In this document: in pieces, positions 1,920 through 57,834 of the stretch
Numbering within the stretch: the first letter of the stretch is position 1
Layout: the number at the start of each line of letters is the position of its first letter
Assembly: GCF_964204645.1 (NCBI RefSeq)
Contig: NC_134025.1
Location: 25,214,299 to 25,278,298, forward strand
DNA length: 64,000 bases
Direction: 5' to 3'
Source: Tubulanus polymorphus
Taxonomy: Eukaryota > Animalia > Nemertea
Made by a program: the position numbers and the translations under genes
Notes under the pieces: generated by a model
Seen by the model: only the letters and a program-made list of their open reading frames with translations
Told to the model about the DNA's origin: nothing
Databases searched by the model: none

Positions 1920-3494
1920 ATGTACAGTTCGCAGAGCAACCATCAAGAAATGAGCGATTCGAAATACACGGTCGCTGATATTTTATCGTCTATGGCCAGT
2001 GGTGTAGATCCGTCTCCTACAGCGGTAAGAGCTGCCTATCCCATCTCTTCTTTATTTCAGCGTTGTTACTTAAACATGGCGTCAGTAGTGTGCAGGCATT
2101 TGCCGCTTCTTGCTTATTGCGGTTTAGTCTTGATCACATGACCTAGAGAGATAGAGAGAATCAGACTATTGCCTGATATACAATTACTACAAGTTGGTCT
2201 AATGTTGCATTAGAAAATAATGTATATTACATTTTAATTCCTAATAGGCTAAGCTATAATCTGGCTTTAGCCTAAAGCTAGTTTTTCTGAATTGCTTCAT
2301 TTTGATTTTATTTATTTTGCAGTACACCGCTGCGAGTTACGTATCCGGAATAACGTCTCTGACGACTCCCACACTTACGCCGACAACTCTTTCGAATATT
2401 GAGCAAACATTTTTAGAGCTCCAGTCTGGTCAGAATTTACAAGATCGCCACATGCAAAGTGGGTTCGTACCACCGCATGTAGAGCCTCATGGCGTCAAAC
2501 GTGAACTGAAGAAAGACGATCCAGACTGGTTCCCTTCATCAAGTACCAGTTCGACCAGTTCTACACCAGCGAAAAAGTTTAAAGGTCGAGATTTGTTGAG
2601 AGAAGAAGATATTTATACTCCCGGTTACCTTTCAACCAGTCGTCGACCGCCTAAACGTCAAAAAGATGATGATCTTCAAGGGGTAGGTTTCTTTCGAATA
2701 AGCAAATTGTTGCAAAATGTATTACATTGGATGCAAAGATTTTATGTTGCAATTCCTGTTTTAGTTGCCGGTTGAAGAGAAGGAACGCCGACTTCAGAGA
2801 AGAGAACGAAATAAACTTGCTGCTGCAAAATGCAGACAAAGAAGAGTCGACCATACTAACCAATTAGTTCAGGTAAATTATTTTTCATATGCCTAGAAAA
2901 ATTTGTTTTCGTCACTTAGATATCAAAGTTCAATAGAAAAATGCTGTTCGGACTTGAACTTTAACCAGCGTCTCAACATTGGAATGTGAATGAATTTCAA
3001 CTTTGATCACCAAGAAATGCATGACATCTAAATCATTAACTAACGTTCTGTTCTATTTCTGTGTTCTACAGGAGACAGAAGCTTTGGAAAGTGAAAAATC
3101 TGATTTGGAAAACGAAATACAAGGCCTCCAACAACAGAAAGAGCAGCTAGAATTCCTTCTGCAGGCTCACAAACCGTTGTGTAAAATCACATCGCAAACT
3201 GTTTCAGGTGTTACTATAAAACGCGAAAATGCTGATGAATCTTCTCTGTGTAGCGGTAATATAAACACCCGACCGATGTCGCTGCCTCTGCAAAAAACAA
3301 ACAATGCCGGCGATTTGGGCGTACCAATATCGACGCCATCAAATGGAATATTTTCATTCGGTTTGGACTCGATCGTCGATGGACACACCGGTTTGACACC
3401 GTTGATAACGACGTCTTGCGCCGGTCAACTTACGAAAAACTCCGAGCACATATCGTCGGATCCGTTGAATTCACCGACTTTGATTTCGCTTTAA
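1920..3494 (+). CDS. FOS: Fos-family bZIP transcription factor (kayak/Fra-like), ~331 aa; exons 1920-2024, 2323-2682, 2765-2872, 3072-3494
   Basis: Basic region EEKERRLQRRERNKLAAAKCRQRR; leucine zipper ETEALESEKSDLENEIQGLQQQKEQLEFLLQAH; invertebrate Fos motif TPTLTPTTL; C-terminal SPTLISL; all introns phase 0. Confidence 0.93.
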
Positions 3495-7746: not shown

Positions 7747-7760
7747 GTTGACATAGCAAC
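7747..7760. promoter_or_regulatory. RFX X-box (ciliary gene element)
   Basis: GTTGACATAGCAAC, two mismatches from the palindrome GTTGCCATGGCAAC, about 170 bp upstream of the ATG at 7927. Confidence 0.7.
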
Positions 7761-7926: not shown

Positions 7927-10900
7927 ATGTATCAAAACGGAACATTCGCTCCGTGCAACAAGTATTTGGCGCGAAAATGGCACGAACACCAATTGAAGAA
8001 ACACACTCACAGGGTAAGAAGGACAAGTATTTTCAATATTGCGCATATTCTTTTAAGAGCTATAAATATCAGTCACGGGATTCTATATGTCGGGTACATC
8101 TGTCGAATTTTACAATTTGGTAAAAGTATTTGATGATTATTGTGACATATGTCCGGCATCCTATTTTTCTGGCCAGCTGGCCTAAAAAAAACCTTGGACA
8201 TATTTCATTTTCATTGGTACAAGCGTTGTCGTCGTCGTCGTCGTTATATAAGCTATTTTTTGTATTCGCTATGTTATAGCGAGATTGTTTCCTTCAGAAA
8301 TATTCTTCAAGCGGAAAAAGCTATATTTCTAGAAGTCGCTTTGAGCCGGTTTTTCATGCATTTACAATAGTAAAATAGGTTAAATGCTATTGAGCCGTGG
8401 GGTTATAGAGATTAAGGATAAAAATAAGCAATCTTCGGAACAAGCTATCGATGGAATTAAATATTCCCCCATTTTCCATTTCTACTTTTAATACTCATTT
8501 GTTCTTTCTTTCCTGTTTTTCTATACGATATGATCGATAATCTTTGTTTAAGATTCGCCATGTGAAAGGCTCTTTAGACATGAGTCCCCCGAAGCGATAT
8601 CCACATTTAGAAATGAGACTGAAAAAAATTCAGGTAAGACCAGCCGAATTAATACCAGCCGATCAGTACCATACCAGTAGTTACATAGAGCAGATAGTAC
8701 AATATATAAAATAATCACGTAAAGTACTACTGCCAGTAGATCATAATTTATCCAACAGATATTTCAGGCATTTGTTTAATAAGATCATTAATCGATGGTG
8801 AATATACAAACACTGCCGTATTCAATATGGAAATATCAACATTTCATTTGACTATTGCAATCCTGTGGCATAAACCCGGCAAATAATGGTGACATTATAC
8901 ATCGTAAAAACAAATATTGGAATCCAGTCACCAAACGGTATAGTCTATTATGAACAGCCCTGAGTGAATGGAGACATAATAATGTGATGAAAGAGATCCT
9001 CTCATTCGATTCACGACGTAATAAAACCACTAGTAATGAATCTGCATTTTTTTTCTCATAGATGGAAGAAGACAGACAGGCCCTAGTCGAAAAACATAAC
9101 AAGCTACTTTTGCATAAATTGACAGATATAATGAGAAAACCAGCTAGAATTGATCACTGGAATGACTATCAGCAGAAAAGGTAGAAAAGCAAGAATATGA
9201 TAAGTTGAGGATATTGGTGATGGGCGATCTTCCTACCCACACACTCCTCTATTCGTGGTTTCGTGGGGGTCAGTTCGTTGTCCAAATCTCTAAAAATGTT
9301 GAAGTTGAATAACAAGTACATAAGTTGTCCCTCTTTTTTGTCTATCGAAGTCAATGAACGGAATGATTGCTATATGATTAATCACATCAAACATTTTTCT
9401 TCATTTTCCCCGTGTGGAACTAAGTTCATAATTGATAGAGTTCCTAATCAACGCGTAACGAAACGGTGAAAGCACCGATATTGTAATTAAGGACTCCTTG
9501 GTGTTATTTCTGACAACTTTTCTCGTTTTTAGACGACATTCAATTGATGTCCCGGCGTACAGGTAATACAGAATCTCATGTATATACGTATTATACATAC
9601 ACGCCTTCTATACTATTGTATATATCACTTTTTTACATGTATTCACTGCCGCAAAATGTAGCAAATCAACGCTTTTTACTGTTCGACATTATTCATTAAT
9701 ATTTCATTGAAAAGATTTTCGTTATCTGCAAAGCAACTAGTCTATGGGGCAATATTGTTCTTGCTTTTTCTTAATCTGCCTAGCCGCTTTCAATGAACTT
9801 AAGAATTAGTAGAAAATATATCCCTTTCCAAAAACCTTCTTACTGTAGACCCTCGTTAATACGAATCATCTGGCGGGCATCGTATTATCCAAATCTGGAC
9901 TGATATGAATATGTTAGCTGGGACATGCTGGGAATCATCGTAATAAACGAGTTTCGTTTTTAAAAGAATCGTCTTAACGAGGTGCAACTGTACAAATGTA
10001 TGGAATAAATCAGCTTTTGTCACAAATAGATATATTATGAATATCAACAGAAACGCGTGTGGATAGAACTTGCATAATTGCGGAATTCCATACATAATAT
10101 GGTTATTTGATATATTCTTACAGTTTAAACCAACCGGCCAGACAAAAAGCGCTCGAGAAAATTGTTTCCGAAAATCAACGACTTGCCTTTAAATTAGAAA
10201 ATGCGAAACCCATTATCAACAGGAAGGAAATGGTAGGTTTTTTCGTATATTTCAATCGACCCTTAAAAATCCGATATGATGTATGTTACTTTCAGTAGCG
10301 ATACCGTGATGTAGCTATAGCGACGAAGCTATAAATAAGTACTGAATGTGTTTGTCCCCCTGATGTGAAGAGGTTTTTAAAGTGAATGACTTGCTATCGA
10401 AAACATGTCAAACACCGAATTGATTAAAAATCTTTAAGCGTTGAATATGTATCGAGTTTCATTTCGTTTGCAGGAAAAATCTTTTAAAAAACATATGAAA
10501 GTGAAGAGAATGCTTGCAACAGGGGATAAAGACTTCCCTACAACTCACCAGCCAATCAGCTATCACGATTATTGTAACAGAAGGGATGGGAATTACAGCG
10601 ATAGTTGGGAGGTAAAAGAGCATTACAATCTGAAGAGTTTACTGGGGGCAAATTTACTGAATTTTTGCGCGGTGGAAATTATTTTTTTCAAAATTAACAG
10701 CAGATTTGGGGCTTGACATGAACGGTATTAAAAGCGAAATGACTCAATTTGAACATATCACGGTTATTTTTGTTTTACGGTCTATGACGGAAATTCGATC
10801 TTCCATTTTCAAGTTGGAAATTTGATACCAACTACACACAAAAAGAGGAAATTGAACGTGTGAAAGTTGTGCCAACCAGGAAACAGTCATGAATATTTAT

Positions 10901-13900
10901 TCAATCCATGATTCAACCACCGACGAACTGAGCCCAGAATTGTAGTAACTGTATATCCTTGGCAACTAATGCTCGTGGGCAAAATATTGTGAAGTCTAAA
11001 TAGTGGATCTATTTTCAGTCTTTGAGTGAGGATGAAGATGCTGGGAGGCAGAGAACTGATCGTTCACGTTCACCAAGCCCAGTGTCAGAATATGCAGGAT
11101 CTCAAGATCTTAAAACAAAACAGGTAGCAATGACCCGTGTTTCCAGGTTTTTGGAACTTCCTGCTGCTGATTGTGCTAATTCTTTTGATCGTATTTAGGA
11201 TAAGACGGGGACCAATCGAAATGCTAACGTACCGAGGTTTCCTCAAATCAAAGAAAAACCAGCGAAAGCAGTTAAGGTGAGTTTTGATCGAGGCTTAATA
11301 AAAAGCTTAGAAGATTTTTTTCGGAGCTATCGTCTGCCGAGACGCGCGCTATACTGATTTCAGAATTAATGGCGTATTAACCGTTTACAGGACGAGAAGA
11401 AAACGCAAGCTGATTTGGATGCAAAACAGCTATTCAGAGCAGTGAAACATTTAGGTAAGTGCTAGTCGGCAAGAGCGACAAGGAAATGAAGATTGATAGG
11501 TTTATCCATGGACTCTAAAGCAAAACGTCATATTAGAGTCCATGCTTTTTCCAATAAAATGCGTCACGCCGCTGATATATATCCCTTCAACATTTCATAC
11601 AATTATCGTCTTACCCAAATGAAATGAACTGCGGTATACATAACTTTTTCGAGGTATCTATTATATATCACTTTATTATTCTATCGACAGCCGATCCCGA
11701 GGAGACATTACTGAAACACTTTGCCAAACGATCCTACATTCAACGAATGCAGATATCTGACAAGTTTGAATATTTATATGACCTGGTAAGGGAAGTGACA
11801 ATTCCGTATTGTCAAAGCAAAAATGTGTAAGCACACACATATACATTGAAAATCAACTATTGCCTAATAAAATGACACTCGACATTTGATCAATGTTTTT
11901 TTTAGGAATTAGGGGAAGAATTGAAAGAATGTTTAGGAAGTAAATATTTTGCGCTGATAGATGCTTTACTGCAAGAAAGTAACAGTAAATCACATTTGGA
12001 AACAGCAGAAAAGCTGAATACTGCTATTGAGGTCGGTATCTAAATTCTTTTAGAGAATGATCCCTCGAATACTGATACATTTACGATCTTTGTTTCGTGG
12101 TTGTAGACTGAGAAAATTGATGAAGTCATCGGCGTTGTAATAGCAGAAGGGAAACACGATTTATTATCCTTGAAAAATGTGTATAAACGAGGTATGAAAT
12201 ATTTAATTGATTTATGCGTGAGACTGTTTGTTGTTTTCTTCATTCGGAAGTTATTTTTGATGCAGAATTCAAGCACACAGTGGAAGAAGATGTGAAAGAA
12301 TATATCAAAAATGAAGATATCAGAAATCTGTTGTTAGTACTCGTTCAGGTAAAAAGTGCGCATGTAAATAGAAATATATAATATATCTTTATCACTATGA
12401 TATACAAGATCCATTTGGCGAATCCTCGTCTGAATTATATAAAATACTTGATTTGTTGATGAAGTCGTCATGCGGAACATTTTGCAGAAAGACGTAAGCA
12501 GTACCGATCCAGATCCGATCCTTGCTGAGAAAGATGCGAAGGAATTGTATGAGGTAACTTACATATAGTTGTGGCCTGAAAATTAGTCATTCTTAACTTT
12601 ATGTATTTGTAAACATGAAACAATTTTCATACATTTTTAGGGAGATGAGGACTGTTGGTATTCGGAATCTGGCACGTTCTTGAAAGTGGTAAAATTAAGA
12701 AGCTATATGCAAATATTGTTGACCTTTGAAACGTACCAAGATGTAAGTTGGACTTAAGTTCAGTTTCAGTTAGCGGTTGATATTCGTCGATGGTGTTCAA
12801 TAAAACAAAACTATGATTACGCACTTCAGTATTTTGGATTTTCTTTCGGAGTGAAGTTTCGAATTTTAACCCGTATTTGTTTGAATCTTCCAAAAAGGTT
12901 TCCGATGGACACGCGATAGCTGATACAGTGGCCGCTGAATGCTCAGAGGAGTACGCAACAGCCGTCAGCAGTTTAGGTAATACTTCTCCATGAATAGAAA
13001 TATCTGAAATATCTACATTTATGCAAATTCTTCTATTTCTGCTATTTGCATCATTTATCTGGAATGTTATTGTTTATTTACGACAGGAACCCAAATAAAG
13101 GCCAGTAACCATGGTAAAGCCGAAAACTTGTTCAAAGCGGCCAATAAACCAGATGGCGGGAAGCTTTTCATCACCTTACTTTTGCAAGCATCAGAGGTTA
13201 GCAAAATCACTGGTCGAGTACATCCATTCTTTCCAGAAATTATCTGAAACCTATGGTGGCTGATTCGGATTACGCTGATATTTTTCAAACATTAAATAAA
13301 TCTGAAAACAAATTTGATAGCGATAAAACATATTGACACGAGAATAAATATTCCCGAATCAGCCACCATAGAAATTCCCATCTAAAATTTGCATTTCATT
13401 TTAGGGTGATATGCCTGCGGTAAAACAAGCGTATCGCGAGAAGTATAAAGTGGAACTGACCGATACGATAATTGCAACTTTCAAATCACAGCTCGGACGA
13501 ATTTTGATAGAAATTGTTCACAGGTCCGGAAAAACTGCAACTCACAAAAAGGTAATTATAGAAGTTTTTACTTTTTGCGGAAGATTTTATTTGATAACTT
13601 AAAATTTTTCTATTCAGCAGCAGGGTCCGAGAAGACTTGGCGGCATGACTATAAATCCACCTAAACAACAAAAACCGCTAGCAAAACCAAGACAACAGTA
13701 TGCACAAAAAGATCTACACCACCCCCTAAATCAACCAGTTAAAAAGAAATCAAACGCGACAAAAGATGCTAATCGATTGGATGATACGTATGGTGAAGCG
13801 GACACGGCTGTTAGGAGATTTGGTAAATATCGTTTATACATAAACCATGCAGTTGATATATTAATTTTACAGATACGTAGCTGATGACCGCTAATGATGT

Positions 13901-15431
13901 GGTCGAAACGGCGTTGTTTTCAAAATATATATTCTATATAATTTCTACTTCAAATAATTCAAATTTTTCTTTGTGCTTTTTGTTATCATACACTCTTAAC
14001 GCATCCGGTCTATGAAATCTGAAGTTTCTATTTTGATGTTACGTATTTGCCATAGCTGAAAATGAGAAGATAATCGAAGAGACGCCTGAAGAGGAAATAC
14101 CTGATGACGACTGTAAGAGAATATACGATGCGATGCAAGGTCTGGGGATAGATGAAGATATGATTGGAGAAATTCTCACCACGAAAAACTCAAAAGAACG
14201 CATGGAACTTAAAATGATCTACAAAGATAGATACAATCAGGTTTCACTATCACCAAGTTTTATTCATTCAACGTAGATTTTATCATTTCTTACACATTTA
14301 ACTTCTTTCAATATTCATTTCGCTCAGGATTTATTGGAAGACCTGAAAGCTGAACTTCCGAATAATTATGCAGAGTTGCTGACTGGATTACTAACAGAAT
14401 CCGACCGGTATATAATAAAAACTATCCATGATGAATTACGCGATGAGACTCAACTAATTGGAATCCTTTGCTCAAAAACATCCCAAGTAAGTAGACTAAC
14501 CAAAAAAACCTTATTCGAAACTTTGACAATACTTACACCTTTTTCTAAAGCTATCGATGCATTTTCATCATTTCAGAGGTTGAAAGTACTTATCAATAAA
14601 TACAATGAACAATTCAAAACAGATTTACTGAGTGATGTCAATAGAAATTCAAGTAAACTGTTAAGTAGCTTGTTAAGCAGTTGCATAGATTTCGGTGTAA
14701 AGTCTCGGTTTGATGAGGAAAAAGCAGAAAAAGACGCCGAAGAAATTTACGAGGTAAAATTCGAGCTTTATTAGAAGAATGTAAATTTTCATTTCGGTGA
14801 CTCAGGAATGAAACATTATTCCAATCGTCGATTGATTTATCTCCCACGATTTATCGTTTTTTGATTTTCCCCTGATAGGAACTGATGGAGGAAAATGTTG
14901 ATACTATCGCTAAAGTGCTATCCAGTCATAACGCCGAACAAGTAAAGGCGACATCTAACGCTTATGAAAACCTCACTGGCAACAGTATCGCTGATGAATT
15001 AGAAAAGACTTTCAATTCTTCTGAGAAGTCAGCATACGTAACTGTCCGTAAGTTATGCCGTTAAGGCCACAATTCATTTTTTCCTTGACAGATTACGGAA
15101 AAAGCAGCTCATCTATTTTTAGTCGAACTGATCGAAAACCAAAACGATTTCTTCGCCGATCAACTACATAGTGCTATACAGGAAGTTGGAAGCAAGCAAA
15201 GATTTGTACAAACAATAATCCAACACATGGATGTAAGTTAAGAAAAAGTAGTAAATGAAAAATAGTCCTTTCGATTCCTTGACTTGATTGTCACTCGAAT
15301 CTTTTTAGACTGATTTGTCCGCCATCGCAAGAAAATATGAAGAGAAATATGGCGAATCACTGAAGTCAGCAATAGGCGATGAAATAAACGGAGATTACGG
15401 CAAGATGCTGACAAGACTAATACAGAAATAA
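7927..15431 (+). CDS. CFAP97/KIAA1430-domain protein fused to two annexin cores (8 degenerate repeats), ~933 aa, 24 exons
   Basis: Exons 7927-8013, 8553-8633, 9062-9180, 10124-10232, 10474-10611, 11019-11123, 11199-11276, 11391-11454, 11691-11785, 11906-12031, 12107-12191, 12266-12348, 12488-12553, 12641-12742, 12898-12976, 13087-13196, 13405-13551, 13618-13822, 14056-14240, 14328-14486, 14577-14753, 14879-15047, 15123-15232, 15309-15431; all GT-AG and phase-compatible. N-terminus CNKYLARKW..YPHLEMRLKKIQMEEDR..SLNQPARQKALEKIVSENQRL is CFAP97D-like; annexin repeats include DCKRIYDAMQGLGIDEDMIGEILTT..DLLEDLKAEL and YEEKYGESLKSAIGDEINGDYGKMLTRLI; AATAAA at 15761. Confidence 0.82.
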
Positions 15432-16177
15432 CTTTTTGCCAACTCAATCCTGATATACGTTTTATGCTTGACTCAATTCGCTTTTGTACGAATTGTTGCA
15501 ATTCATATGCGCAATTGCGAGTTGCTTGTTATCGGTATAGGATAACACGTTATATTGTAAACAAACAGAAGTGCCAAAGTATAAGAAGATAAGTTTGTGT
15601 CAAAGTTGTTGCATATATTCGTTATACAAGTTTTATTCTAATTTGTTCACCGGACAAGCCTTGTTATGCCAGAGACTGGACCAATATTTTGCTACGCATT
15701 CAGTTTGTAATGTAGTTTTATTTTCATGAAGATCTCAGATGCATAATATGAGATTTCTACAATAAATTGAACTGAAATTTCAGCACATTTTGCAATTAAT
15801 TCATTTTGCTGTTACATCGAGAACATTTGCAAAGTATCAGGTATTTATCAATGTCGATATTATCATGTCACGAACATCATGGACTATGTGAAATGGTTTA
15901 ATTCTGCATTCTGGCAGTATCCTCTCAATTGGCTCTCCTAACCCCAAATACAGTATCCTCTTGTCACTGAACGTCAAGAAAAAAGGAACAACGAACTTAA
16001 ATTTTATATATCATTATAAAATAAGAAGAAATTTTATTCACACTAATTCACCTAAAAGAATAGAAAATATAATAAGCTTATAGATTTTTATGAAAATAAT
16101 TGGAATAATCAAACTGGGTTTTACTAGTTCTCATTAATTTCAAGCACCATTATACGTATGTTACTATGGATTGCAGC

Positions 16178-18221
<2,044 letters not shown>

Positions 18222-25200: not shown

Positions 25201-27032
25201 TTTCCTTACTGATACATGGAAATATATCATCTACGCCAAGTTTGATTTAGCTAATGGGTGTATTCTTCAATTTGTGTTTTTAGAACATTGGTTTCCAAAA
25301 TACATAGCCGATTTAGACGACTGCGTTCATCTTATTACAAAATTCGAACCGGAACTAGATACAGACCATCCGGTATGTGGCGATGTCTAAGCTCTATGTT
25401 TCGTGTTTTTTTATTTTCTAGTGAACTGATAAAAATGAGTACTCGTTTGAATTCTTATTGCAGGGATTCTGCGATCAAGAATACAGAAAGAGAAGAAAAG
25501 AAATTGCCGACATCGCATTTTGTTACAAATAGTAAGTCAAATTGGGGACACTGTGGCGTTCACTTGGAAGTGCATGAAGTTTTTGGGTAATAGTTATGAT
25601 CCGAATTATCTTCATTTTGTCAATTTCAGTGGGCTTCCAATTCCATCAACTACGTACGCACCAGATGAGATTGATACATGGTATGTGACGTGTATTATGC
25701 ATTGCATAAATATTTCTTACTTTCATTGAAAACTTGCATTTAAAAATATCTCATCATTGCTCTAGGGGACGCGTGTACAGAAAGCTTGTTTCCTTATTTC
25801 CTACCCATGCCTGTAAAGAACATATCGAGGTTTTCGAGCTGTTAGAAAAAGAATGTGGCTACAGCCCAGACAACATTCCGCAATTAGAGACTGTGTCAAA
25901 CTTTCTCAAGAGTAAGTGCCCGATTCTTGACAAATTTAACCCTAATGTCACAGACCGTTTTTCTTTACCTCTTCCCGCTTACTTATTTCAGAAAGAACTG
26001 GATTTCAACTACGTCCGGTTTCGGGATTATTATCAGCCCGAGATTTCTTAGCCAGCCTCGCATTTAGGGTGTTCCAATGTACGCAATATGTGCGCCACAG
26101 TTCTAGGCCATTCCATTCACCAGAACCGTACGTTCAGTAATATCCTTTCTTCAAATGTTTCCAACGAATAGAAATCAACAACATTTCATTCTATCGTCAC
26201 TCATTTTGCAGAGACTGCGTTCATGAATTACTTGGGCATATTCCTCTCTTAGCCGTTCCTAGTTTTGCCGAATTTTCCCAAGAGTTAGGTCTTGCCAGCC
26301 TTGGGGTATCGGACGAGGATATCGAAAAGTTCTCTACCGTAAGTTTATAAAAAAAAGAATATTCCAGCTTTCACGAGGGGTTTTTTCGTCGTTTTGAATT
26401 TCATTCTTGATGATTTCCAGCTGTATTGGTTCACCGTAGAATTCGGCCTCTGTAAACAAAATGGCGAAACACGGGCAATAGGGGCTGGTCTCCTATCATC
26501 GTTTGGTGAACTGGAGCACGCCCTCTCCGGGGTACCGGAAATAAAACCATTCGATCCAGTCACCACAGCAGTCCAAGAATACCAAGATCTCACTTATCAA
26601 CCCATATACTTCCTAGCTGAATCATTTGATTCGATGAAACAAAAGATGAGGTACGTATCTAGGAAGTACACACATGTGTATATAAAAAACATCTTTGTTT
26701 CCTGAGTTGTCTATTGTAAAATAACACATCTATTCCCAAGAATCGGAATATTTAGGATTTGAGTTAATTTTGAATGGATTCTTAGAGATTAGTTACATTG
26801 GTATGCATTTCTTTCTAGGGATTACGCCCAGTCCATCAACCGACCGTTTGAGGTGAGTTACGACCCGTTTACGCAGACGATTACCGTTCTATCGAATGAG
26901 CAGATCATTTCGCAGACGTTGGAAAAACTGCAAAAAGAAACCGGTCATTTGCGAAGAGTGATCGAACGTATGTCTTTGTTGTCACACGACAAAATCGTCG
27001 AAACGCATTCGAAAGTTGTGAATACAACATAA
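19245..27032 (+). CDS. TH: Tyrosine 3-monooxygenase (tyrosine hydroxylase); exon 1 19245-19319, exon 2 23147-23446, exon 3 24436-24628, catalytic exons 25284-27032
   Basis: FQKSFSLE|[18 protein letters not shown] resembles the invertebrate TH N-terminus; ACT domain (LHHVESR); [31 protein letters not shown]; TH-type Asp in YQDLTYQ (26586-26588). Confidence 0.93.
23782..23892 (+). promoter_or_regulatory. Intronic ETS-CRE composite site with a downstream TATA-like box in TH intron 2
   Basis: GGAAGTGACGTCA 23782-23794; TATAAATA 23885-23892. Confidence 0.45.
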
Positions 27033-28448: not shown

Positions 28449-30644
28449 TCACATTTCAAATGCAAGATAATCTTTCAATTTTGAAGGCAATGTCAATCGT
28501 GAAATATTAGCTTCAATATTTCCACAATTCGTATACATCTGCTGGCGTAGTTTGATTCTCACCAACGCTTGTAAACTCAGCGGTTCTTCCAACGCGACAT
28601 CTACAACCGCAGCTTGAGAATTGTTCACCAATTTCCTGACCTGATTAACGAGACCGCAATTTTTCAGCAATAATAAAACATCTTTTCCGAAGTCTTCGTC
28701 GCACAAAAATCCGAGATCAATACTAACATCAGGATCCAACAGTCCGCATAGTTTCTTTCCGACATGCGTACCTAAATACGGATTATGACGCCAAGAATTT
28801 ACGAGGATATTGAAATTTTCGATAATTCCTGGCAGTTCGGATTGCTTACCGAACTTAACGACCTTTTCGAAAACGATATCGATAAAGTTCATGTAATCGA
28901 GCGAAGTCCATCCGGTTTCAGCGTCGAGTGAGTGAATATCTTTCAGGACGCCGAGCATGTTCGATATTTCGCAAGGCGACGTATCGGGTACGCTGTCGAA
29001 TAAACACTTCACTAAAGGTAGTTCGAATTGACGCCACGCTTTTCCCGCGTATCCAAGATTGAAGAAATCGTAAACATCCGTGATTTCATTTACGTCCTGG
29101 TTAAATATACTGCCTAAGCTATTGTCGGCATTCTTCGTAGGTTCCACTGTGGTGAACCCATCCATGATGACGTGACTGAACTCGTAATGAAAACTTTCAC
29201 CTTCACGAAGCCCGGCTTCGATGATGAGTTTCATTATTTCTACTTGTCTCGATTGGTCGTAGTAATTATCGGCTTTCAAATGTTGGAAAGCGGCCAACAA
29301 CGGAGAATTGTAACCGAATAAATTGAAATCTTTTAAACACGGATCAGCACCTTTCGACAAGAGATACCTTACAACGTCTAAATCACCTTTTGAACACGCG
29401 TTAGATAACGGTGACTGCCCATGACAGTCTAACACATTGATTTTCGCTCCTAGTTCTAAGAGCGTACTGACAATCTGCAAGCTATTTCCTTTCAGTAGAG
29501 TTGCGAAATGTAAAGCAGTTTTCCGATTGCCATCGGCAAAGTTTACATCGACGCCGAGTTGTTGAATATAAAGTACGTTTTCTAATTTTCCACCGATAAC
29601 GGCCGAATGCATCAACGCTTTACCAGTCTGCGCTTTGGCTATCGAAACAATAGTTTGTGGCCAGTAACTTAGCAATAATTCCATCATATGTTTATCGGAA
29701 CTACGAGCGGCTACACTAAACACCGTAGATAACAAATTCATCATCTCTTCACCATCGATGAGCAATGACTCGAGTAGAATTCGAACGATTTCTAGATACC
29801 CGTTCTCAACCGCGTCGCGCACCAACGGAACGATATCAGTGGCCGTTTTCAAAGACTTCGATGGTAAGGCAACTTGAACGATACCTCGATGTCCTAATAT
29901 ACACGCCGTATACAGAAAATTCCTACACAGTTCTCCGGTAATGTTATTCACGAGGAAAACCTTCGCGACATCCGGTTTACACGACGGCCATTTCTGGCAC
30001 ATCAGTTTGATTTGCTCCGTCGGAACGATACCCTTCAGTTTATCATGCGTTAAGATGATTTTGCACAATTCAGCGTTACCAGTTCTATACGCGTGTAACA
30101 ATAATAAACTAAGCGTTGTACGTGGAAAATCGATAGGGTAAGAGCGTTCATTATCGGCTATGAAATGCGCTAAATCACTATTTTGTTGTTCAAATGCAGA
30201 TTTCAGGCACAGAGTCCAATGTAGATCGACTTCATATTCATCAAGAATTGTCAATACATTGATTTCATCATCAGATAATTTGTTAGATTTGCAGCGCATA
30301 ACGCATCGAATTTGATCGTCATGAAAAAGTTGATTTCCGACTGGTGGAACATAGTTCTCCACTAGGCTTAGATGGTTGAACAATAGTCTTAGCATTGACC
30401 AGTGTGATTGGTCAATTGCGAGATTGAGAAGTCTCGACCAATATTCATCATTTGCCGAAAATGATGCGTGCCGCAAAAATGATTCAACGATATCACAATT
30501 TCCTGATCGTACGGCAAAATAAGCCGCAGATTCGCAGTAAGAGTTCAATGGTCGACAGATATCGATTCCAGGCCGAGTTAACAGTTCCCGTACTTTCGTT
30601 ACATCAGATGCCTCCACGGCTAAATAAAGAGCTCCAAGATCCAT
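28449..30644 (-). CDS. Ankyrin-repeat and SOCS-box protein (ASB-like), 731 aa, single coding exon
   Basis: Ankyrin repeats (GVDVNFADGNRKTALHFA, GQSPLSNACSKGDLDVVRYLLSKGAD); C-terminal SOCS box PLSLQALVRIKLR...LPSKLKDYL. Confidence 0.9.
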   Translation of the reverse strand: MDLGALYLAVEASDVTKVRELLTRPGIDICRPLNSYCESAAYFAVRSGNCDIVESFLRHASFSANDEYWSRLLNLAIDQSHWSMLRLLFNHLSLVENYVPPVGNQLFHDDQIRCVMRCKSNKLSDDEINVLTILDEYEVDLHWTLCLKSAFEQQNSDLAHFIADNERSYPIDFPRTTLSLLLLHAYRTGNAELCKIILTHDKLKGIVPTEQIKLMCQKWPSCKPDVAKVFLVNNITGELCRNFLYTACILGHRGIVQVALPSKSLKTATDIVPLVRDAVENGYLEIVRILLESLLIDGEEMMNLLSTVFSVAARSSDKHMMELLLSYWPQTIVSIAKAQTGKALMHSAVIGGKLENVLYIQQLGVDVNFADGNRKTALHFATLLKGNSLQIVSTLLELGAKINVLDCHGQSPLSNACSKGDLDVVRYLLSKGADPCLKDFNLFGYNSPLLAAFQHLKADNYYDQSRQVEIMKLIIEAGLREGESFHYEFSHVIMDGFTTVEPTKNADNSLGSIFNQDVNEITDVYDFFNLGYAGKAWRQFELPLVKCLFDSVPDTSPCEISNMLGVLKDIHSLDAETGWTSLDYMNFIDIVFEKVVKFGKQSELPGIIENFNILVNSWRHNPYLGTHVGKKLCGLLDPDVSIDLGFLCDEDFGKDVLLLLKNCGLVNQVRKLVNNSQAAVVDVALEEPLSLQALVRIKLRQQMYTNCGNIEANISRLTLPSKLKDYLAFEM

Positions 30645-31052: not shown

Positions 31053-34000
31053 ATGGGGCGTAAAGTAACTTTAGCAACATGTTCACTGAACCAGTGGGCT
31101 ATGGACTTTGATGGAAATAAAAGAAGAATTCTGAAAAGTACTGAACAAACAACAAAAGTTTATATCTTTTACCCTCCAGCCCGGCTGAAGTGAATGAGTG
31201 AGAAAGCCACTTACAAAATTACTCATTGATTCACTCTTCGTCACCAATATTTACGCCTTAAAGATAACAACAAGAGCGTTGATATTGTCATATTTTTGGT
31301 ATTGTTTTATAGGCATCGAAGAAGCAAAATTGCAAGGTGCAGCATATCGATTGGGGCCCGAACTAGAAATTACGTAGGTTTGATCCTAGTTAGTTACCTG
31401 ATTAACTTTTCAGGAATCTGACCATTTTTGTACTTTATCTTAGTTTTTATTATCAGGCCTATTGTGGGATTCTCTATGCAATATTATCGCAACACGGATA
31501 CAGTTTTTTTATGAATGGTTAGCATACCTTGTCCCCTCCGACCTGGGCTGATTAAGGCATCATTCATTTATTACGTACGCATAAAATTTGAAATTTTCAA
31601 CCCCCTCTGTATGCAAAATCTACCATTTTTTCGTATACATTAAGCATTACAATACGCAATTGCACTGATCCCTCCCCATCCCCCCCTAATGTGACGTAAT
31701 AAATGAATGACCCCTAAGCTCTGTCGGTCAGGCCTCTGACACTTAATTAATGCTGCTATATTAATTTAGACATGTGGACCTCACTGATGTCAAGTCCTCA
31801 CTGATATGAGTTAAACTTGTTCATGTTTTATAGTGGATACAGTTGTGAAGATCACTTCTTCGAGAATGACACATTTTTCCATTCTTTCCAAGTTCTTGCC
31901 GATCTTGTTAAACACCCATTTTGCCAGGGAATCATGGTAGATGTTGGCATGTAAGCATCCATATTATTTTGGTACCCCAGAAATAAAACTTCTATGAAAT
32001 TTTCAAACACCTTCTATGGTTTCTACTTTATTTATTTATAGGCCTGTTATGCACAAGAATGTTGCCTACAATTGTCGAGTGATATTCTTAAATAAGTAAG
32101 TGTCTTCAGCATTGAAAAATTGAACCTTTTATAAAGCAGAATGTTTGGATTTTTTATGTTCTTTTTGTTACAGAAAGATTTTGCTGATCCGTCCAAAACT
32201 TGCATTAGCAGATGCCGGTAACTATCGAGAGCCACGATGGTTCTGCGGTTGGCAGAAGAGAAAACAGATTGAAGATTTTTATCTTCCCAGAATGATTCAA
32301 GAAATCACTGGACAGGTTAAGTTGCCTTAGCGAAAGAATACAAAATCTTGACTTAGATTGAAAGAAATGTTCTAAACTAAATTTACCCTTGCAGAAAACA
32401 GTCCCATTTGGCGAAGCTGTAATAGCCACAATTGATACTTGTATAGGGGTGGAAACTTGTGAAGAACTTTTTATATCAAGAGGGTAGTACTATGCCTATT
32501 TCAAAGATTATATTGCGCTGTCAATCATTGTTATTTATTATGCTGTTAACGAATTCTGATATATGTTTTGAAATTACACATACAATTCCTCAAGTAATGA
32601 ATTGTGAAAATGTGTAATCCATAAATGAGCCGTGCCTGAATTGATGATGTGCTTTATTGGTGCAACCATCTTGTTCTGGTATATAAAAGGCTATAGCACC
32701 ATTTAACAGTTTTATTTCTATTCTAGTCCACATATTGATATGAGTGCTGATGGAGTTGAGATATTTACGAATGGTAGTGGCAGTCACCATCAACTTCGCA
32801 AACTCAATTATCGAATAGACACTATTACATCTGCTACTGTTAAGGTAGGCAAAATCAGAGATTTCTCCTAAAATATTCATATATTGATATAAGAAGGAAG
32901 AATTTTCGTATTTTCAGTGTGGAGGTATCTATATGTATGCTAACCAGAAGGGCTGTGATGGATCAAGGCTTTATTTTGATGGTTCCTCTAATATCGCGAT
33001 TAATGGTGAATTTGTGGCCCATGGATCGCAATTTTCACTCTCAGAAGTGGTAAATATACAATGCATCTCACATCCTTGTTTGCCAAAAAATGCATCCTTT
33101 GATAATTCATACCGTAATTTGATTTCACATTTTGCTTAGGAAGTTGTAACGGCTGTTGTTGACTTGGAGGATGTTCGAATGTATCGAAATTCAATGCGTG
33201 GACGATCTCTGGAAGTATGTTTGAACGAGTAATTGAATATGAATGAGTGTAGGCCTAGTTGAAATCAGTAGTGTCAGGTTGGAAAATTTGGATATCTGGT
33301 GCTAGTCATGAAAATTTAGTCAAAGAGATCAACATCAAATAAATCTCATTATGTTAATGTGGCTAAACGGTTTATAGGTCTATACTAGTAAGTAGAAAAT
33401 TTATTGTTTTTTTTTCAGGCAACAAAATCAGAGGCCTACCCACGCATCAGGGTTGAATATTCCTTGTCTAATGATGATGATATTGACTTAGCACCAACTG
33501 AGCCTATACAGTGGAACCTTCACACTGCGGAAGAAGAAATTGAGTGAGTAAATGAATGATTCTAGAACACCATCAAATCGTCTATGAAACAGTTAAAAGT
33601 TCAACTATAATGTTTCTTAGAATGGGACCTGCCTGTTGGCTTTGGGATTACATCAGAAGGAGTGGACAAGGCGGATACTTTCTACCACTAAGTGGAGGAA
33701 TCGATAGTTCTAGCTCTGCTTGTATTGTTTCTTCAATGTGTAGACTTGTTTGTGAAGCAGCGCGAAATGGAGGTAAATGATAATATAGTATTGTATTCAT
33801 ATGCCTTTACCTCAGATATGTGATATTGACACTTGAAGTTTTATTGATGATTTTGACTCTTTAGATGAAGATGTGATCGCTGATGCTCAGCGACTGGTTG
33901 GAGATGTGAACTACATTCCGACCGAACCTAAAGAACTAGCCAGTCAACTGTTCACTACTTGCTACATGGGGTCAGCAAATAGTTCCGAGGATACTCGTTC

Positions 34001-36214
34001 AAGAGCATCAGAATTAGCCGAGGAAATCGGTAGTTTTCATATGAACGTCAACATTGATTCGGCAGTGAAGGCAGTTATAGGAATATTTACATTAGCATTC
34101 AATGTTATGCCTAAGTTCAAAGCTCACGGTGGCGGATTACGGGAGAATCTAGCCTTACAGAATGTACAGGTACACTTAATGATTTCTTCGTTTGGCATGC
34201 TTCATATGTGAAGTAGTAAACTGTTCTATGATTTATCTTCTGTTTAGGCCAGAGTTAGAATGATTTTAGCATACCTGTTCGCCCAATTGACATTATGGGC
34301 AAGAGGAAGAGCTGGTGGACTTTTAGTGCTTGGATCTGCGAATGTTGATGAAGGGTATGTAAGTAGAGATTGGCACTATAACTCTTCATGTTGACAATGC
34401 TTAGCCCTAATTCATTATCTAATTGTTCTATGTTTTCAACAGTTTGAGGGGATACATGACAAAATATGACTGTTCTAGTGCTGATATAAATCCTATCGGT
34501 GGCATTAGTAAGACGGATCTTCGAGCATTCATACATCATTGTATTGAGAAATTTGGATTCAAGTCTTTAGAAAGGTTACTTATTAAGTTACCATGTTTAT
34601 CTTTAATTTTGATAGATTCCGATGAAGAAGCTTTTAAATTTCTTAGGTATATGTTTTAGGATATTTGCAGCAACTCCTTCAGCTGAACTAGAACCTCTTG
34701 TTCAAGGACAGGTTGCTCAAACTGATGAAGTAAGTTTATGCTGCCCTCTAGTAAGCAATTTGATAACTATTTTCTCTAGCAGACAAATCACTTACTGGTT
34801 TGTGAAAATTTTGTCAATTTACCACTGTATTTTTATATATCATGAATTAGGATGACATGGGTATGACTTATGAGGAACTTTCAACTTACGGGCGCTTGAG
34901 AAAACAAGCCTGCTGTGGACCCTACAGTATGTTCTGTAAACTCATTCATAAATGGAAACAATTTTCTCCGAAAGAGGTGATTACATGTCGTTAAATAACA
35001 TCAATTTGTTCAAGTTTTTATCCACAAATTTGTAGTCCAAATTAAAAGCAAAAAAATTTCTATTGGTTTGTATTGTTGTTAGGAAAATCTGGTCCTAATC
35101 AGACGCAACACTATCCCGCCACCCCCTCCCATCGCCAAAGTATGTCAGACTGAAGCTAAAAATCAATGGTGACAGATGCCACCGTCATTTTAGATAGAAA
35201 CATTTCACTGAATTAACTTTCGTTTTTGAAATTGGGTACTGAATTTGTATTGGAAATACTGTATGATCTGGCCTGATGCCAGTAACTGATGCTATATCTG
35301 ATTTTATGAATGAAATTTACCAAGACAGGTGTCCAAATCTGAAGCTAAAATTGTCAGTCAATGGGTATATGCTGTAAACAATGATTGGTTCACCCATAAA
35401 AACTGGTATATTTTTGTTTTCTTCAACAGGTGGCGGAGAAAGTCAAGTTTTTCTTCCGAAATTACTCGATTAATCGACATAAAATGACGACGATAACTCC
35501 GGCTTATCATGCCGAATCCTACAGTCCGGATGATAACAGATTTGATCTACGTCAGTTTTTATATAACGTTCGTTGGCCCTGGCAATTCAGAGAGATCGAT
35601 GCCGTGGTACGTTATATCCACAACAAACCCCAGAATTATCGACAAAAAAATCAAAAGCTTGAATGAGAGAAAATGAGTCGTTCTCTGGAAAATTAATTTT
35701 GCCCGATATTTGAAATTTTGAAAATGTATTATGACAACATTCGTCAACAATGAAATTAACGATTTAATAATTATATTTGATCAGATTTGTGAAAGAGAAA
35801 TGATGTTCTATCTTTCTCTTACAGGTCACTAAATTAGAGAATAAAGAGAAAACCACTACGCGTGGATATGTGAAAGAAACAAATATTGAACTCGCTCGAA
35901 AAATGTCACAGCAAAACAATGCGAGCACTGCCGCTCAACAATCGAACCCGACTTCACAAACCTCTATGTCTACGAAGAATTCAGAACCCGTTGGGGTTTT
36001 AGTCGCCAAAGATTTGGCTCTCAAGGAAAATTTGAAACCGCATAAGACAGACAATCAATTCATAAACAATTTCACCACCCGTGGCAGCATGGACAACAAT
36101 ACCTCTATCGAAACTATGGATATGGATGATGCAAACCATGGACTCGAACCTTTACTCGATGCTCCTCGGATTGAAACTTCAAAACGAAGGAAAATGACTT
36201 ATGCGTTCGTTTGA
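31053..36214 (+). CDS. NADSYN1: Glutamine-dependent NAD+ synthetase, multi-exon, with an extended last exon 35825-36214
   Basis: [19 protein letters not shown]; RLGPELEI; nitrilase-family GVETCEEL; [10 protein letters not shown]; [11 protein letters not shown]; [17 protein letters not shown]; [15 protein letters not shown]. Confidence 0.96.
31556..31714. mobile_element. PIF/Harbinger-type MITE in an NADSYN1 intron
   Basis: TIRs GGCATCATTCATTTATTACGT and ACGTAATAAATGAATGACCCC (19/21 match); TAA on both flanks. Confidence 0.8.
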
Positions 36215-40847: not shown

Positions 40848-42244
40848 TTACGAATACATTACTTCACCACCCGTATTGCTATTGCTGTCGCTCGTGTAGT
40901 GCGACATGCCTCGTTTCAGTTGTTCGAAAAGAACGAACGTAAGTATGTTCCACGAACCGAGTCTCATGTAATTTGGGACAAATCTGCAAAAACAAAAGTG
41001 ACAATTATTATCAGACGACCACAAAATTGCTAGTCCTTAGTGCAGCGTAGTTTTTTTGTCGATAAACTATACTATTATCGGTCTCTATTTACCCTTTGTA
41101 AAAGGCTGCAAGACCGCCTTCTTTGAACATCTTAAGGGCACAATCAATAGCGCCGTTGTAGACTCCTGGTCCCGAATTCATAAATCTTGTCTTGACAACA
41201 TCTACTGGCGACGCAAAACACGTTGTAATGAAGCCGGCGCAGAATGCGGATGTGAAGTGACAAGGTAAAGTGTCGTGCATTAGGTTTCTGTGTAGAATGA
41301 ATTCTTTAACAAGATCGTAAGACACCAGTTCAGCTGCGTTAACAACTGCATTACGCGTGATGTTCGGGATCGCTCCTTAATGAACAGAAATAAACAAATT
41401 ACAGAAAACATATTTAAAGTATATCTCCAATAGGGACCAGTTGGGAAATCATCTATAAATATCGATATTCAAATATTTCAGCTACCTTTCCACAAGCCTT
41501 TGAGACCTTCCTTTTTGGCAATGCAACGATAGGCATCCATACATCCGGCGTAGCGTTGTTTTCCACCAGGCGCTTGGAATCGCACTTTTACGACATCGGT
41601 AGGTTGAGCGACCACGACTGCCAGGCCGCCAGTGGTAATACCTGCCGCGATTCTTAGTGGGATGTTAGTATGATGGGATGTTTCACCTGAAGTTAAGACG
41701 AGCACAGCATCAAGCACACAGTGTGGAGCATGTTCATCAGGCTTTCTGATCGAGAATTTGGTTGAACTTTTACAGAATTAAATTAAACTCACCTCCGAAC
41801 ACGCTTGAATATGCGCCTTTAACCGTATCATAAAGACCTATTCGAACTGAAGCAAAGCACATTTGCCTCTGAAGACCAGGTACGATACCATTATACAACG
41901 CAAAAAAGCCTTCTTCTTTCGCTATAGTGGCAATTGTACCTAACATGCCACGATATTTCACTTTGGCTGCTGCTGATTCAAGCGCGGCTGCACCATTCTC
42001 AACAGCTACATTGGACACACAGCCCTCTCCTTGGATCTGAAAAAGCAAGGAAATTTCGTTAGTTATACGATGCAAGCAATTCCATAAATATCTGTAAGCG
42101 TCTGTTATAAACACTAACCTGTAGACGAACTTTAGCAACGTCGAGGGGAAACGTAAATAAATCGGCAGTACTGGCAGCAATACCAGCACTGAAAAATTTC
42201 ACAGTTATGGTAGGCTCCTCAGTTAGAGGCTTGAATCCAACCAT
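40848..42244 (-). CDS. UCP2: Mitochondrial uncoupling protein (UCP2/3-like, SLC25), ~329 aa; exons 42244-42119, 42036-41793, 41686-41486, 41375-41093, 40983-40848
   Basis: [22 protein letters not shown]; [16 protein letters not shown]; [12 protein letters not shown]; [14 protein letters not shown]; [18 protein letters not shown]. Confidence 0.93.
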
Positions 42245-56000: not shown

Positions 56001-56712
56001 TTTCGAAAGTCAACGGATATACAAATATTGAAGTTGCAGGTGGAGTGCATTCAGTACAGAGACTCTTCACAATGGTTTTTCGACGCACCACATCACTGAT
56101 TGGCAGGTTTTTACCATTTTCCTCATCAAACTTTATCCGTCGTCGTTTGATTATTTCCCAAATTTCCTGTTTATCTTGAGTCAACTCAACATCACAGGTC
56201 TTCTGTCGTCTGATCAACTTCTCGCAATCCTCTTTCGAATTGTATTGATAGTTCAGAATTTTCATTAGTAATCCATCATCGTAAACATCATCTTCATCAT
56301 GAGTATTGTCCGTATAGATATCCTCATCACTCTCATCTTCATCAAATACTCTTAACTGAAGTCGTTTTTTAAAGCTAGTTCCTAATTTCTGAAGTTCACT
56401 AGTGCTACTATATGTATTAACTTCAGTTTGAAAGAAAATGATCAGAGAACCAAAACTTGTCAGTAAACTTAACATTCTATGCATTCCTTCATTCATTGAC
56501 ATACGTACAGGATTTACTTCATTAAAGAATGAAAGACCCAGGGAAAGTGGTTTGATACCCCTATACAAGTTTAAAGGCGAAGGCAGTAAACCTATAATAT
56601 GATAATTTCTATTTTTTGTTGAATCAGTTTCTTCAATTGGTTCACATTCCTCAGGTTTCATTCCATCATTTGAACTAGCAGCACCAGTGGGATCTTTTTC
56701 TTTTTCAACCAT
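53055..56712 (-). CDS. Inhibitor of apoptosis protein (3 BIR + UBA-like + RING) with a 1.9-kb first coding exon (56712-54816)
   Basis: BIR1 RLASFSQWP..VVCFCC..HQRFYPDC; BIR2 RLRTFSSW..KCAFC..EHRRHFSTC; BIR3 RMETFHNWP..VRCFFCDGGL..EHCRWFPQC; VRRVLDMGY; RING CKICMD..FLPCGHLVSCRGCA..CPICR..VRTFMS*. Confidence 0.94.
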
Positions 56713-57834
56713 GATGCTGTAAGAATAAATGATATGTTAAGGTTATAATACCCATTACCAAGAGTTCAGAGTAAGGAAAAATTGTAAGCTTAGCTCTGTG
56801 CCAACAAATTCCCTATACAGAAAGAGCACCCAAAATCATTTAACGCAGTTTAACTCAGATAGCCGTACGATGTTATTCATGTATACTGAGTACCTAGGGT
56901 ACTACTCACTAATAGTCAGTGCATGTCAACTAATTAAAAAGATGTTTTCCTGAAATCAGGCCCAGTCTACTAGGTAGTAAAAGGTTCAGTATATTCATTG
57001 AAAAGGGCTTAAAAAGTTTAAGTTTATATAACTTGTTTTGTATAACACAATAGTACAATAGCCTACTGAATACCAGACATTGTTACAGTGGGGAGGCTAG
57101 ATACGTAAGTCTATTTATTTTGGTCAGGTATGAATTTTTTGGTGATATTTCTCTTAATCTTTTGAACACATTAATATAAATGTCCTAAAAAATTTATAGA
57201 AAAAAATAAATAGCTTTTATAGTCACGGTCAGTTGTGGAGAAATGATAGGTAACAGGCTTAAAAGCCGATGGTCTCAAGAGAGTCTGAAACGTTGTGTCT
57301 CTTGATTTCAGAGATTGATAAATAAATTTCGTTATTAACCTTACAAATTTTTAAAAAGAGGGTTTTTTGTGAAACTAAATTAGATTGACAGCTCATTTGA
57401 AAGAACAAAACAGAACAGTACCCACACCTGTTTGATAAGTAAAAGAATCTCCAAAATTACATCGATAAATGTGAAAGCTATAAGGAAAACCCACACTAAT
57501 GATAGAATAAATGTACAGACTACTAGCGCCGCGGCTGGCTATGATACACCCTATTTTGATATTGGCTTGCTTTTGGCCATCCATTGCCATGGCATTAATC
57601 ATTCATACATTTACAAAAAGGGGCACCATAAATTGCTCTTAGGAGATAAGGGACATGTTATATTTGATGTTTACCTATTAAATACTATCTGTATAAGGTT
57701 ATATACATGAGAGAATGTACATTAGCCCCACCTAGTCTCCAAATACTGGCCACTAAAAATGAAACGATTTATTTTTTGTCCATGTCCTTGAATGCTATAT
57801 CATTCGGTGTCGAAGACATCTTCAAATAAATCAA

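Follow-up and report, generated by a model that had tools for sequence, protein, structure and literature searches.

A CFAP97 domain fused to annexin cores in Tubulanus polymorphus: a candidate link between the axoneme and the ciliary membrane

Introduction

To our knowledge, it is poorly established which molecules connect the doublet microtubules of a motile cilium with the membrane along its shaft. A single polypeptide combining a structurally known doublet anchor with annexin cores would be a direct candidate for such a link, and one was proposed from inspection of a 64,000-nucleotide stretch of the nemertean Tubulanus polymorphus (the window; contig NC_134025.1, positions 25,214,299 to 25,278,298). 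This raised the questions of whether the two domain types truly belong to one gene, whether the arrangement is peculiar to this species, and whether the protein could tether axoneme to membrane.

One gene model

The fused frame predicted in the sequence-only reading was upheld. It comprises 24 exons whose 23 introns are all GT-AG and phase-compatible, giving a 2802-nt frame of 933 amino acids with a single terminal stop, letter-identical to RefSeq isoform X3 (P0003 / XP_074650243.1). Junctions 10611/11019 and 11276/11391, as well as the intron-5 stop, lie where that reading had put them.

7927..15431, + strand: whole coding span, 24 exons, 933 aa, identical to XP_074650243.1
7927-8013, 8553-8633, 9062-9180, 10124-10232, 10474-10611, 11019-11123, 11199-11276, 11391-11454, + strand: exons 1-8
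11691-11785, 11906-12031, 12107-12191, 12266-12348, 12488-12553, 12641-12742, 12898-12976, 13087-13196, + strand: exons 9-16
13405-13551, 13618-13822, 14056-14240, 14328-14486, 14577-14753, 14879-15047, 15123-15232, 15309-15431, + strand: exons 17-24
9533..9562, + strand: alternative 30-nt micro-exon with AG/GT flanks, in 3 of 4 RefSeq isoforms (X1, X2, X4)
10714..10716, + strand: intron-5 TGA stop in frame, with ATTAAA downstream at 10727
15761..15766, + strand: AATAAA, candidate polyadenylation signal
7747..7760, no strand assigned: weak X-box-like (RFX) near-palindrome, ending 167 bp upstream of the ATG

All four RefSeq isoforms of the gene carry the fusion, and with the frame and the sequence identity this bears out one fused gene model. 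The isoforms also revealed features that had been missed, namely the micro-exon, which adds 10 residues within the CFAP97 domain, a tandem acceptor at exon 18, and the skipping of exon 5 in isoform X4. Retention of intron 5 would give a short CFAP97-only isoform ending at the TGA; none was seen among the four RefSeq isoforms. The four sequence runs examined were contigs without splice joints, the pieces of runs X2-X4 extending through introns, and hence are silent on splicing. In run X1, exons, which make up 38% of the gene, hold one of its 24 substitutions and none of its six indels (P=2e-4); by half, the counts were 0/13 for the annexin part (P=9e-5) and 1/11 for the CFAP97 part (P=0.38). 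The X-box-like element is the sole site in the window within two mismatches of an X-box consensus, 13 of 100 shuffles likewise have one, and the degenerate consensus was not enriched (22 sites vs 16.6 expected).

Domains and linkers

Pfam and a whole-core annexin profile agreed on the domain identities and on the order that had been proposed.

7927..10527, + strand: CFAP97/Hemingway (PF13879) domain, residues 1-150 (Pfam, PDB-chain matches, structure model)
10528..11393, + strand: linker 1, residues 151-240, predicted disordered
11394..13524, + strand: annexin core 1, residues 241-549, four repeats, all lacking a canonical type II Ca2+ site
13525..14096, + strand: linker 2, residues 550-640, predicted disordered, Pro/Gln/Lys-rich
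14097..15431, + strand: annexin core 2, four repeats, residues 641-933 (profile, structure model, Foldseek)

Isoform X2 scored 69.3 bits against Hmw_CFAP97 (formerly KIAA1430) over residues 26-130, the curated cut-off being 25.6 bits and the match covering model positions 1-99 of 100; against the Annexin profile it scored 167.9 bits, with six stretches above cut-off. The whole-core profile, built from 52 single-core annexins, matched residues 227-550 (130 bits) and 626-933 (231 bits). The N-terminus matches five PDB chains of the CFAP97 family (8snb_4T, 9v10_Aa, 8otz_Z, 9e2g_4R, 9e78_3r), with E values of 1.7e-21 to 8snb_4T and 1.7e-19 to the CFAP97D1 chain 9v10_Aa. Its N-terminal position and its matches to CFAP97D1 and fish cfap97d2 fit the D branch, a tentative placement by position and match. 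The domain is basic (35 K+R vs 15 D+E) and its helices are predicted to be extended.

Structure prediction folded both four-repeat cores (pLDDT ~90), with linkers below pLDDT 50 and a whole-model pTM of 0.45, so that two disordered linkers of ~90 residues and domains without fixed packing are predicted. The single-sequence fold was unusable (pLDDT 39), and complex prediction for core 1 with the CFAP97 domain scored 0.10. Foldseek aligned the cores to single-core annexins at a target TM of ~0.85, and the ESM Atlas returned low-score annexin clusters only. In core 2, four of the five introns share profile column and phase with core 1 introns. Linker 1 shares two motifs with orthologues, an acidic one spanning the boundary of exons 5 and 6 and, within exon 7, a PKLPKI-like pattern present in 9 of 18 proteins, and it scored 22 bits against an orthologue-only linker profile; linker 2 has a KPL-RP motif common to ambulacrarian and abalone orthologues (6 of 18 proteins) and scored 35 bits, both scores being obtained with composition correction off.

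Degeneration of the Ca2+ sites

The canonical type II site reads G-x-G-T...D/E (motif as given in an excerpt of PMC4863580). At least one such site is present in 50 of 52 ordinary annexins, and none of the eight Tubulanus repeats has a strict one. Two are near-intact, both in core 2, where repeat I is near-canonical (G-L-G-I-D-E, with a Glu cap) and repeat IV is degenerate. The assumption that the protein binds membranes as ordinary annexins do was thus undermined, core 1 being a doubtful membrane binder of this kind and core 2 a weak one. Judged by motif, bilaterian core 1 has lost all canonical sites (intact in 0 of 18, five rows being partial). Sponge and anemone first cores retain sites II and III (5/5 rows), and all five Nematostella cores hold intact sites. 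Among 10 spiralian rows, core 2/3 has one or more intact sites in nine and two to three canonical sites in seven, with up to three canonical sites in core 2 of molluscs and the brachiopod Lingula. The Ca2+-blind core is the only one in echinoderm and hemichordate models, and neither Styela core has an intact site; the function conserved among bilaterians therefore cannot be Ca2+-dependent lipid binding. Noticed post hoc, core 1 repeat IV has Lys or Arg at the position of its acidic cap in 15 of 19 rows, where ordinary annexins keep Asp or Glu (48/52); this would favour a tether, but Tubulanus itself has Thr there, which counts against it.

An animal-wide family

The sequence-only reading had understated the fusion; judged from gene models, it is an animal-wide family and not confined to one species. 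It was found by exhaustive search, the word-index homologue search giving only the protein's own cluster. Both domains occur in 17 of 149 non-self best matches, in eight other phyla from sponge to tunicate, with no vertebrate or ecdysozoan among the carriers in those 149; the same 17 pass both Pfam cut-offs within the 30 matches scanned. The fusion is annotated in sponge, anemone, molluscs, annelids, echinoderms and tunicate, nearly all orthologues being automatic gene models. What is conserved is the CFAP97 domain, a linker and a distinctive first core (22-34% identity to Tubulanus core 1); core number ranges from 1 to 5, so the octad does not stand as the shared architecture. As to novelty, no description of the fusion was found in the searchable literature, leaving aside the atypical-annexin survey PMID 28002020, but its members already stand in RefSeq and UniRef under misleading automatic names ("annexin A6-like" in Tubulanus, "annexin A7-like", "uncharacterized", "DNA ligase 1").

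A 616-aa protein with both domains (P0050), encoded on a 4006-bp Logan contig, is identical at 609 of 616 positions to a sea-cucumber gene model, and the contig is most simply taken as a spliced transcript. The Pecten orthologue has both cores without the CFAP97 domain in 3/3 cluster members and the Bugula model ends after linker 1; fission or split annotation thus occurs. The first cores of bilaterians group together (SH-aLRT 98), and a constraint uniting every first core, those of sponge and anemone among them, scored 43 log-units above a quick free search (p-AU 0.92); one tree of three did not recover the first cores as a single group. [quoted passage not shown]

Taken jointly, these observations allow a broader proposal, offered tentatively and short of being probable: an unnamed family as old as animals may descend from one CFAP97D-annexin fusion before the sponge split. 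Ciliated marine invertebrates would have retained it, and vertebrates and ecdysozoans would have lost it; its products would link doublets to membrane along motile cilia, with a Ca2+ dependence tuned by core gain (1 to 5) and site loss.

Possible function and competing explanations

CFAP97D1 is an outer-surface protein of sperm doublets (PMC11779644, PMC13406575), which makes a tether plausible, and with EFCAB3 and TSSK6 it forms one module external to the seam in mammalian sperm (PMC13066092). By analogy with CFAP97 and CFAP97D1 chains in solved structures, the CFAP97 domain would likely bind the outer surface of ciliary doublets, and the flexible linkers would position the annexin cores in the space beneath the membrane, making an elastic tether. 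Core 1 might bind an acidic surface, whether lipid or tubulin tails, independently of Ca2+; core 2 may bind acidic lipid with Ca2+, likely strongly in molluscs and Lingula, and in Tubulanus weakly, through repeat I only. Ciliary localisation of the Tubulanus protein is probable, and a tether function of this kind has about an even chance. The sperm flagellum had been suggested as a site, and nothing in the analysis points to sperm specifically. The sea-urchin fusion protein has no counterpart among PDB chains, 8snb_4T being another protein, stand-alone and 231 aa long; thus a paralogue may occupy the doublet site. Orthologues exist in tractable models: Nematostella (LOC5516017), sea urchin (XP_030854399.1), Capitella and Styela.

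That the CFAP97 and annexin halves share one transcript is highly probable in our estimation, and a merging by annotation of two adjacent genes (one CFAP97D-like, one a multi-core annexin), or minor read-through only, is very improbable. The stop and ATTAAA of intron 5 and the split Bugula and Pecten models would suit two genes, but intron 5 has ordinary splice scores (donor 10.0, acceptor 4.9 bits), its read-through peptide does not match the linker profile, and linker motifs are conserved across the contested junctions. No Met occurs between residues 146 and 279, so the start of an independent annexin gene would have to lie in a first exon not seen here; moreover, 17 further clusters, drawn from eight phyla and annotated by several pipelines, show the same in-frame fusion with conserved linkers, and all four isoforms here are fused. 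A role elsewhere in the cell, such as on vesicles or cytoplasmic microtubules, with the CFAP97 domain repurposed, is highly unlikely. It would accommodate the Pecten orthologue and the staining of Hemingway, which gave no apparent localisation to mature fly sperm, but CFAP97-family chains are axonemal throughout the literature examined, all 17 named carriers are animals that we take to have motile epithelial cilia, and the weak X-box-like site also speaks for cilia.

Within the cilium, the protein could instead be an axonemal scaffold, the CFAP97 domain anchoring on doublets and the degenerate cores docking tubulin or protein partners. Core 1, the sole annexin core common to all members, is conserved despite having no intact site in bilaterians, an interaction of alpha-14 giardin with tubulin has been reported (excerpt of PMC4863580), and CFAP97D1 carries EFCAB3 and TSSK6. 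We consider this unlikely but deserving of attention: canonical sites persist in most spiralian core 2/3 rows and in every sponge and anemone first-core row, and a compact module would not need such long disordered linkers. Annexins act in membrane repair, and a further reading is a Ca2+-triggered reserve on the axoneme that would engage the membrane upon Ca2+ entry alone, for wound resealing, ectosome shedding or deciliation; we consider this decidedly improbable. The intact sites of molluscs, Lingula and Nematostella favour it, as does the apical-organ enrichment (of candidate counterparts only), but Tubulanus has almost no sites left, and Styela and the ambulacrarian models have none. A standing tether remains our preferred reading.

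Comparison with known systems

CFAP97D1/CFAP97D2 (C17orf105) and CFAP97/Hemingway likewise carry the PF13879 domain, which is N-terminal here. The CFAP97-family PDB chains are stand-alone proteins of 158-231 aa, whereas the Tubulanus protein continues beyond the domain for ~780 aa, through linkers and annexin cores. The TSSK6-CFAP97D1-EFCAB3 module similarly places a CFAP97D domain with a further module outside the doublet (PMC13066092), but its partners are separate proteins, a kinase and EFCAB3; in Tubulanus they are fused annexins.

Vertebrate annexin A6 also has eight repeats in two cores and is the best PDB match by sequence and by fold. Orthology was rejected, however, since the ANXA6 halves (P0025; 1048 bits to 1m9i) group with two other annexins apart from both Tubulanus cores (SH-aLRT 98, in a four-row group that includes one ANXA6). 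The Tubulanus protein differs further in its ~90-residue disordered inter-core linker, its mostly lost Ca2+ sites and its N-terminal CFAP97 domain, and so represents a lineage of multi-core annexins separate from that of ANXA6 and at present obscured by misleading labels. The diplomonad annexins alpha-14 giardin and Spironucleus annexin 3, described in the excerpt of PMC4863580 as lipid-binding proteins at flagellar outer doublets, belong to a different lineage (group E annexins), for which that excerpt mentions no CFAP97 domain; as a functional analogy, they may offer a precedent for annexins around outer doublets.

Gene structure and domain architecture

Splice-site reading of the window resolved the gene into 24 exons separated by 23 introns of 66-943 nt, all GT-AG, and the joined exons gave a 933-aa frame with a single stop, at its end. 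The model agrees letter for letter with RefSeq isoform X3, bearing out the exon structure and frame proposed by the sequence-only reading. Exon 19, used as a search query, retrieved one protein having both PF13879 (Hmw_CFAP97) and PF00191 (Annexin), in a cluster of four Tubulanus polymorphus RefSeq isoforms named 'annexin A6-like'. The fusion is present in all four; what sets the others apart from X3 is a micro-exon of 30 nt (9533-9562), an acceptor at exon 18 moved by one codon, and the omission of exon 5. These XP entries are predicted models; RNA alignments are commonly the basis of alternative XP isoforms. Comparison with a sequence run (run X1, distinct from isoform X1) showed that variants within the gene avoid exons, which make up 38% of the sequence but hold one of the 24 substitutions and none of the 6 indels (P=2e-4); the CFAP97 half by itself was uninformative on exon avoidance. 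Short repeated elements at 9901-9947 (intron 3) and 13330-13373 (intron 16) had raised depth and loose ends in the same comparison.

The proposed order of a CFAP97 domain and two annexin cores was likewise upheld, with Pfam matches on isoform X2 of 69 bits (Hmw_CFAP97) and 168 bits (Annexin). Five PDB chains of the CFAP97 family match the N-terminus, a profile from 52 single-core annexins spans two whole cores, and four of the five introns of core 2 agree with core-1 introns in profile column and phase. An AlphaFold2 model from an 84-sequence alignment (mean pLDDT 76, cores about 90, pTM 0.45), with pLDDT below 50 at residues 151-240 and 552-638, predicts an architecture of beads on a string; Foldseek matches of the model are annexins (target TM about 0.85).

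Other genes read in the window are:

2260-3494, + strand: Fos-like bZIP gene end, by eye, diagnostic Pfam match absent
about 16200-16420, - strand: short-chain dehydrogenase-like exon, convergent with the fusion gene, by eye only
25710-26705, + strand: biopterin-dependent aromatic amino acid hydroxylase exons
28449-30644, - strand: uninterrupted 731-aa ankyrin-repeat and SOCS-box frame in intron-rich surroundings
33837-34211, + strand: NAD synthetase-like exon, by eye, diagnostic Pfam match absent
41770-42198, - strand: mitochondrial carrier exons
53055-56736, - strand: IAP-type gene, two BIR domains in a single 649-aa frame, RING finger downstream
62356-62832, - strand: mitochondrial ribosomal protein S31 exons

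One gene and its relatives

Intron 5 carries an in-frame stop and ATTAAA, so that a short isoform is possible. Against a separate annexin gene, the stretch between residues 146 and 279 is free of Met, and a profile built on the linker in 16 orthologue rows finds a match across exons 5-8 (22 bits with composition correction switched off) and none in the intron-5 read-through peptide. The fusion also recurs in many taxa and, judged from sequence, is real in Tubulanus.

An exhaustive homologue search, considering the best 150 of 2427 matches with one representative per 50% cluster, gave 149 non-self matches; the CFAP97 part was matched in 20 and the annexin cores too in 17, and the same 17, among 30 chosen for scanning, passed both Pfam cut-offs. 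Carriers are the sponge Oscarella and the anemone Nematostella; the molluscs Haliotis, Mytilus, Mya, Solemya, Batillaria, Plakobranchus and Biomphalaria; Lingula, Ridgeia and Capitella; the echinoderms Strongylocentrotus, Anneissia and a Logan protein clustering with Holothuria; and Ptychodera and Styela. In annotated models the fusion is conserved from sponge to tunicate. Vertebrates, arthropods, nematodes and flatworms are absent from the carriers among these best 150 matches, which suggests gene losses. Core number, counted from models several of which are partial, is one in sponge and ambulacrarians, two in Tubulanus, Mytilus, Lingula and Styela, three in Haliotis and five in Nematostella. 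As counter-examples, the CFAP97 domain is missing in all three Pecten cluster members, and the Bugula model ends past linker 1. The Pecten maximus proteins (P0012, P0187, P0188) have orthologous cores 1 and 2 preceded by a long N-terminus in which an 11-residue unit repeats in tandem, possibly reflecting domain replacement or split annotation.

Among other proteins, sole cfap97d2 models (P0013 and its cluster, two Solea species) contain CFAP97 domains in tandem, five or six of them spaced about 101 aa apart; P0015, P0022 and P0068 combine several annexin cores with an Fn3_assoc / CHB_HEX_C_1 domain at the N-terminus; and P0041 has a PH domain followed by eight annexin repeats. The sea-urchin fusion P0026 (XP_030854399.1) bears the RefSeq name 'DNA ligase 1'.

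The fusion had been put forward as undescribed. No description was found in the literature searched, where coverage of subscription journals was limited, and as far as could be searched the family is functionally unstudied; the sequences themselves were already in public databases under automatic names. The abstract of a survey of atypical annexin architectures, Fernandez et al. 2017, reportedly mentions annexins of as many as 20 repeats; the Nematostella protein would be in keeping with this, and the architecture may therefore be listed there.

Phylogeny and calcium sites of the cores

Cores spanning fewer than 180 profile columns were left out of trees and site counts. In a tree built from 33 cores of the fusion family with 29 of the 52 ordinary annexins, a quick search with long branches like the other core trees, a branch of SH-aLRT 98 sets apart the first cores of bilaterians and another (SH-aLRT 99) the later cores of spiralians, the latter including one ungrouped single-core protein. 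With ANXA6 halves added, Haliotis core 3 no longer groups with the later cores, nor does the sponge core with the first cores. Constraining all 23 first-type cores together improved on that quick search (+43 lnL, p-AU 0.92), so that a single origin is not rejected, nor is it proven. The RefSeq label 'annexin A6-like' was rejected as an identity, the ANXA6 halves sitting in a separate four-row group (SH-aLRT 98).

When a Ca2+ site is defined as G-x-G-[TS] together with an acidic cap, one or more are present in 50 of the 52 ordinary annexins. Tubulanus has none of eight, the sites of repeats I and IV in its core 2 being near-intact, and all 18 bilaterian first cores (five rows partial) have none. 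Sites II and III persist in core 1 of the sponge and in Nematostella cores 1-4; of the 10 spiralian later cores, 9 retain 1-3 sites, and core 2 of Styela has none. In a post hoc look at the cap position of repeat IV in core 1, 15 of 19 rows carry Lys/Arg there and Tubulanus carries Thr.

A possible doublet-membrane tether

Published reports place CFAP97D1 with the proteins on the outside of sperm doublets (PMC11779644, PMC13406575) and in one module with EFCAB3 and TSSK6, the last external to the seam (PMC13066092); upon loss, doublets break in mouse sperm (PMC7444823) and fly sensory cilia (PMC10425847). The CFAP97 domain of the fusion protein may clamp onto the doublet exterior, and two linkers of about 90 residues, by arithmetic about 30 nm each at full stretch, would give the cores reach to the membrane, where acidic lipid would be bound Ca2+-dependently by core 2 and Ca2+-independently by core 1. 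We consider such a tether an even proposition. Its weak point is that the sole universally retained core is Ca2+-blind in bilaterians, a feature that a protein or tubulin scaffold would fit equally well.

As to where a tether might act, the sea-urchin fusion protein has no corresponding PDB chain. Chain 8snb_4T, from the doublet of sea-urchin sperm, represents a paralogue that stands alone, and sperm is therefore not the favoured site. In one study, three 'Annexin A' models and a single KIAA1430 model, possibly parts of the fusion gene, are Nematostella apical-organ genes, and a sea-urchin annexin, possibly the fusion too, shows expression in both apical organ and ciliary bands (PMC4300403). 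For the doublet-to-membrane tether, a precedent is provided by diplomonad annexins, located at the outer doublets (PMC4863580).
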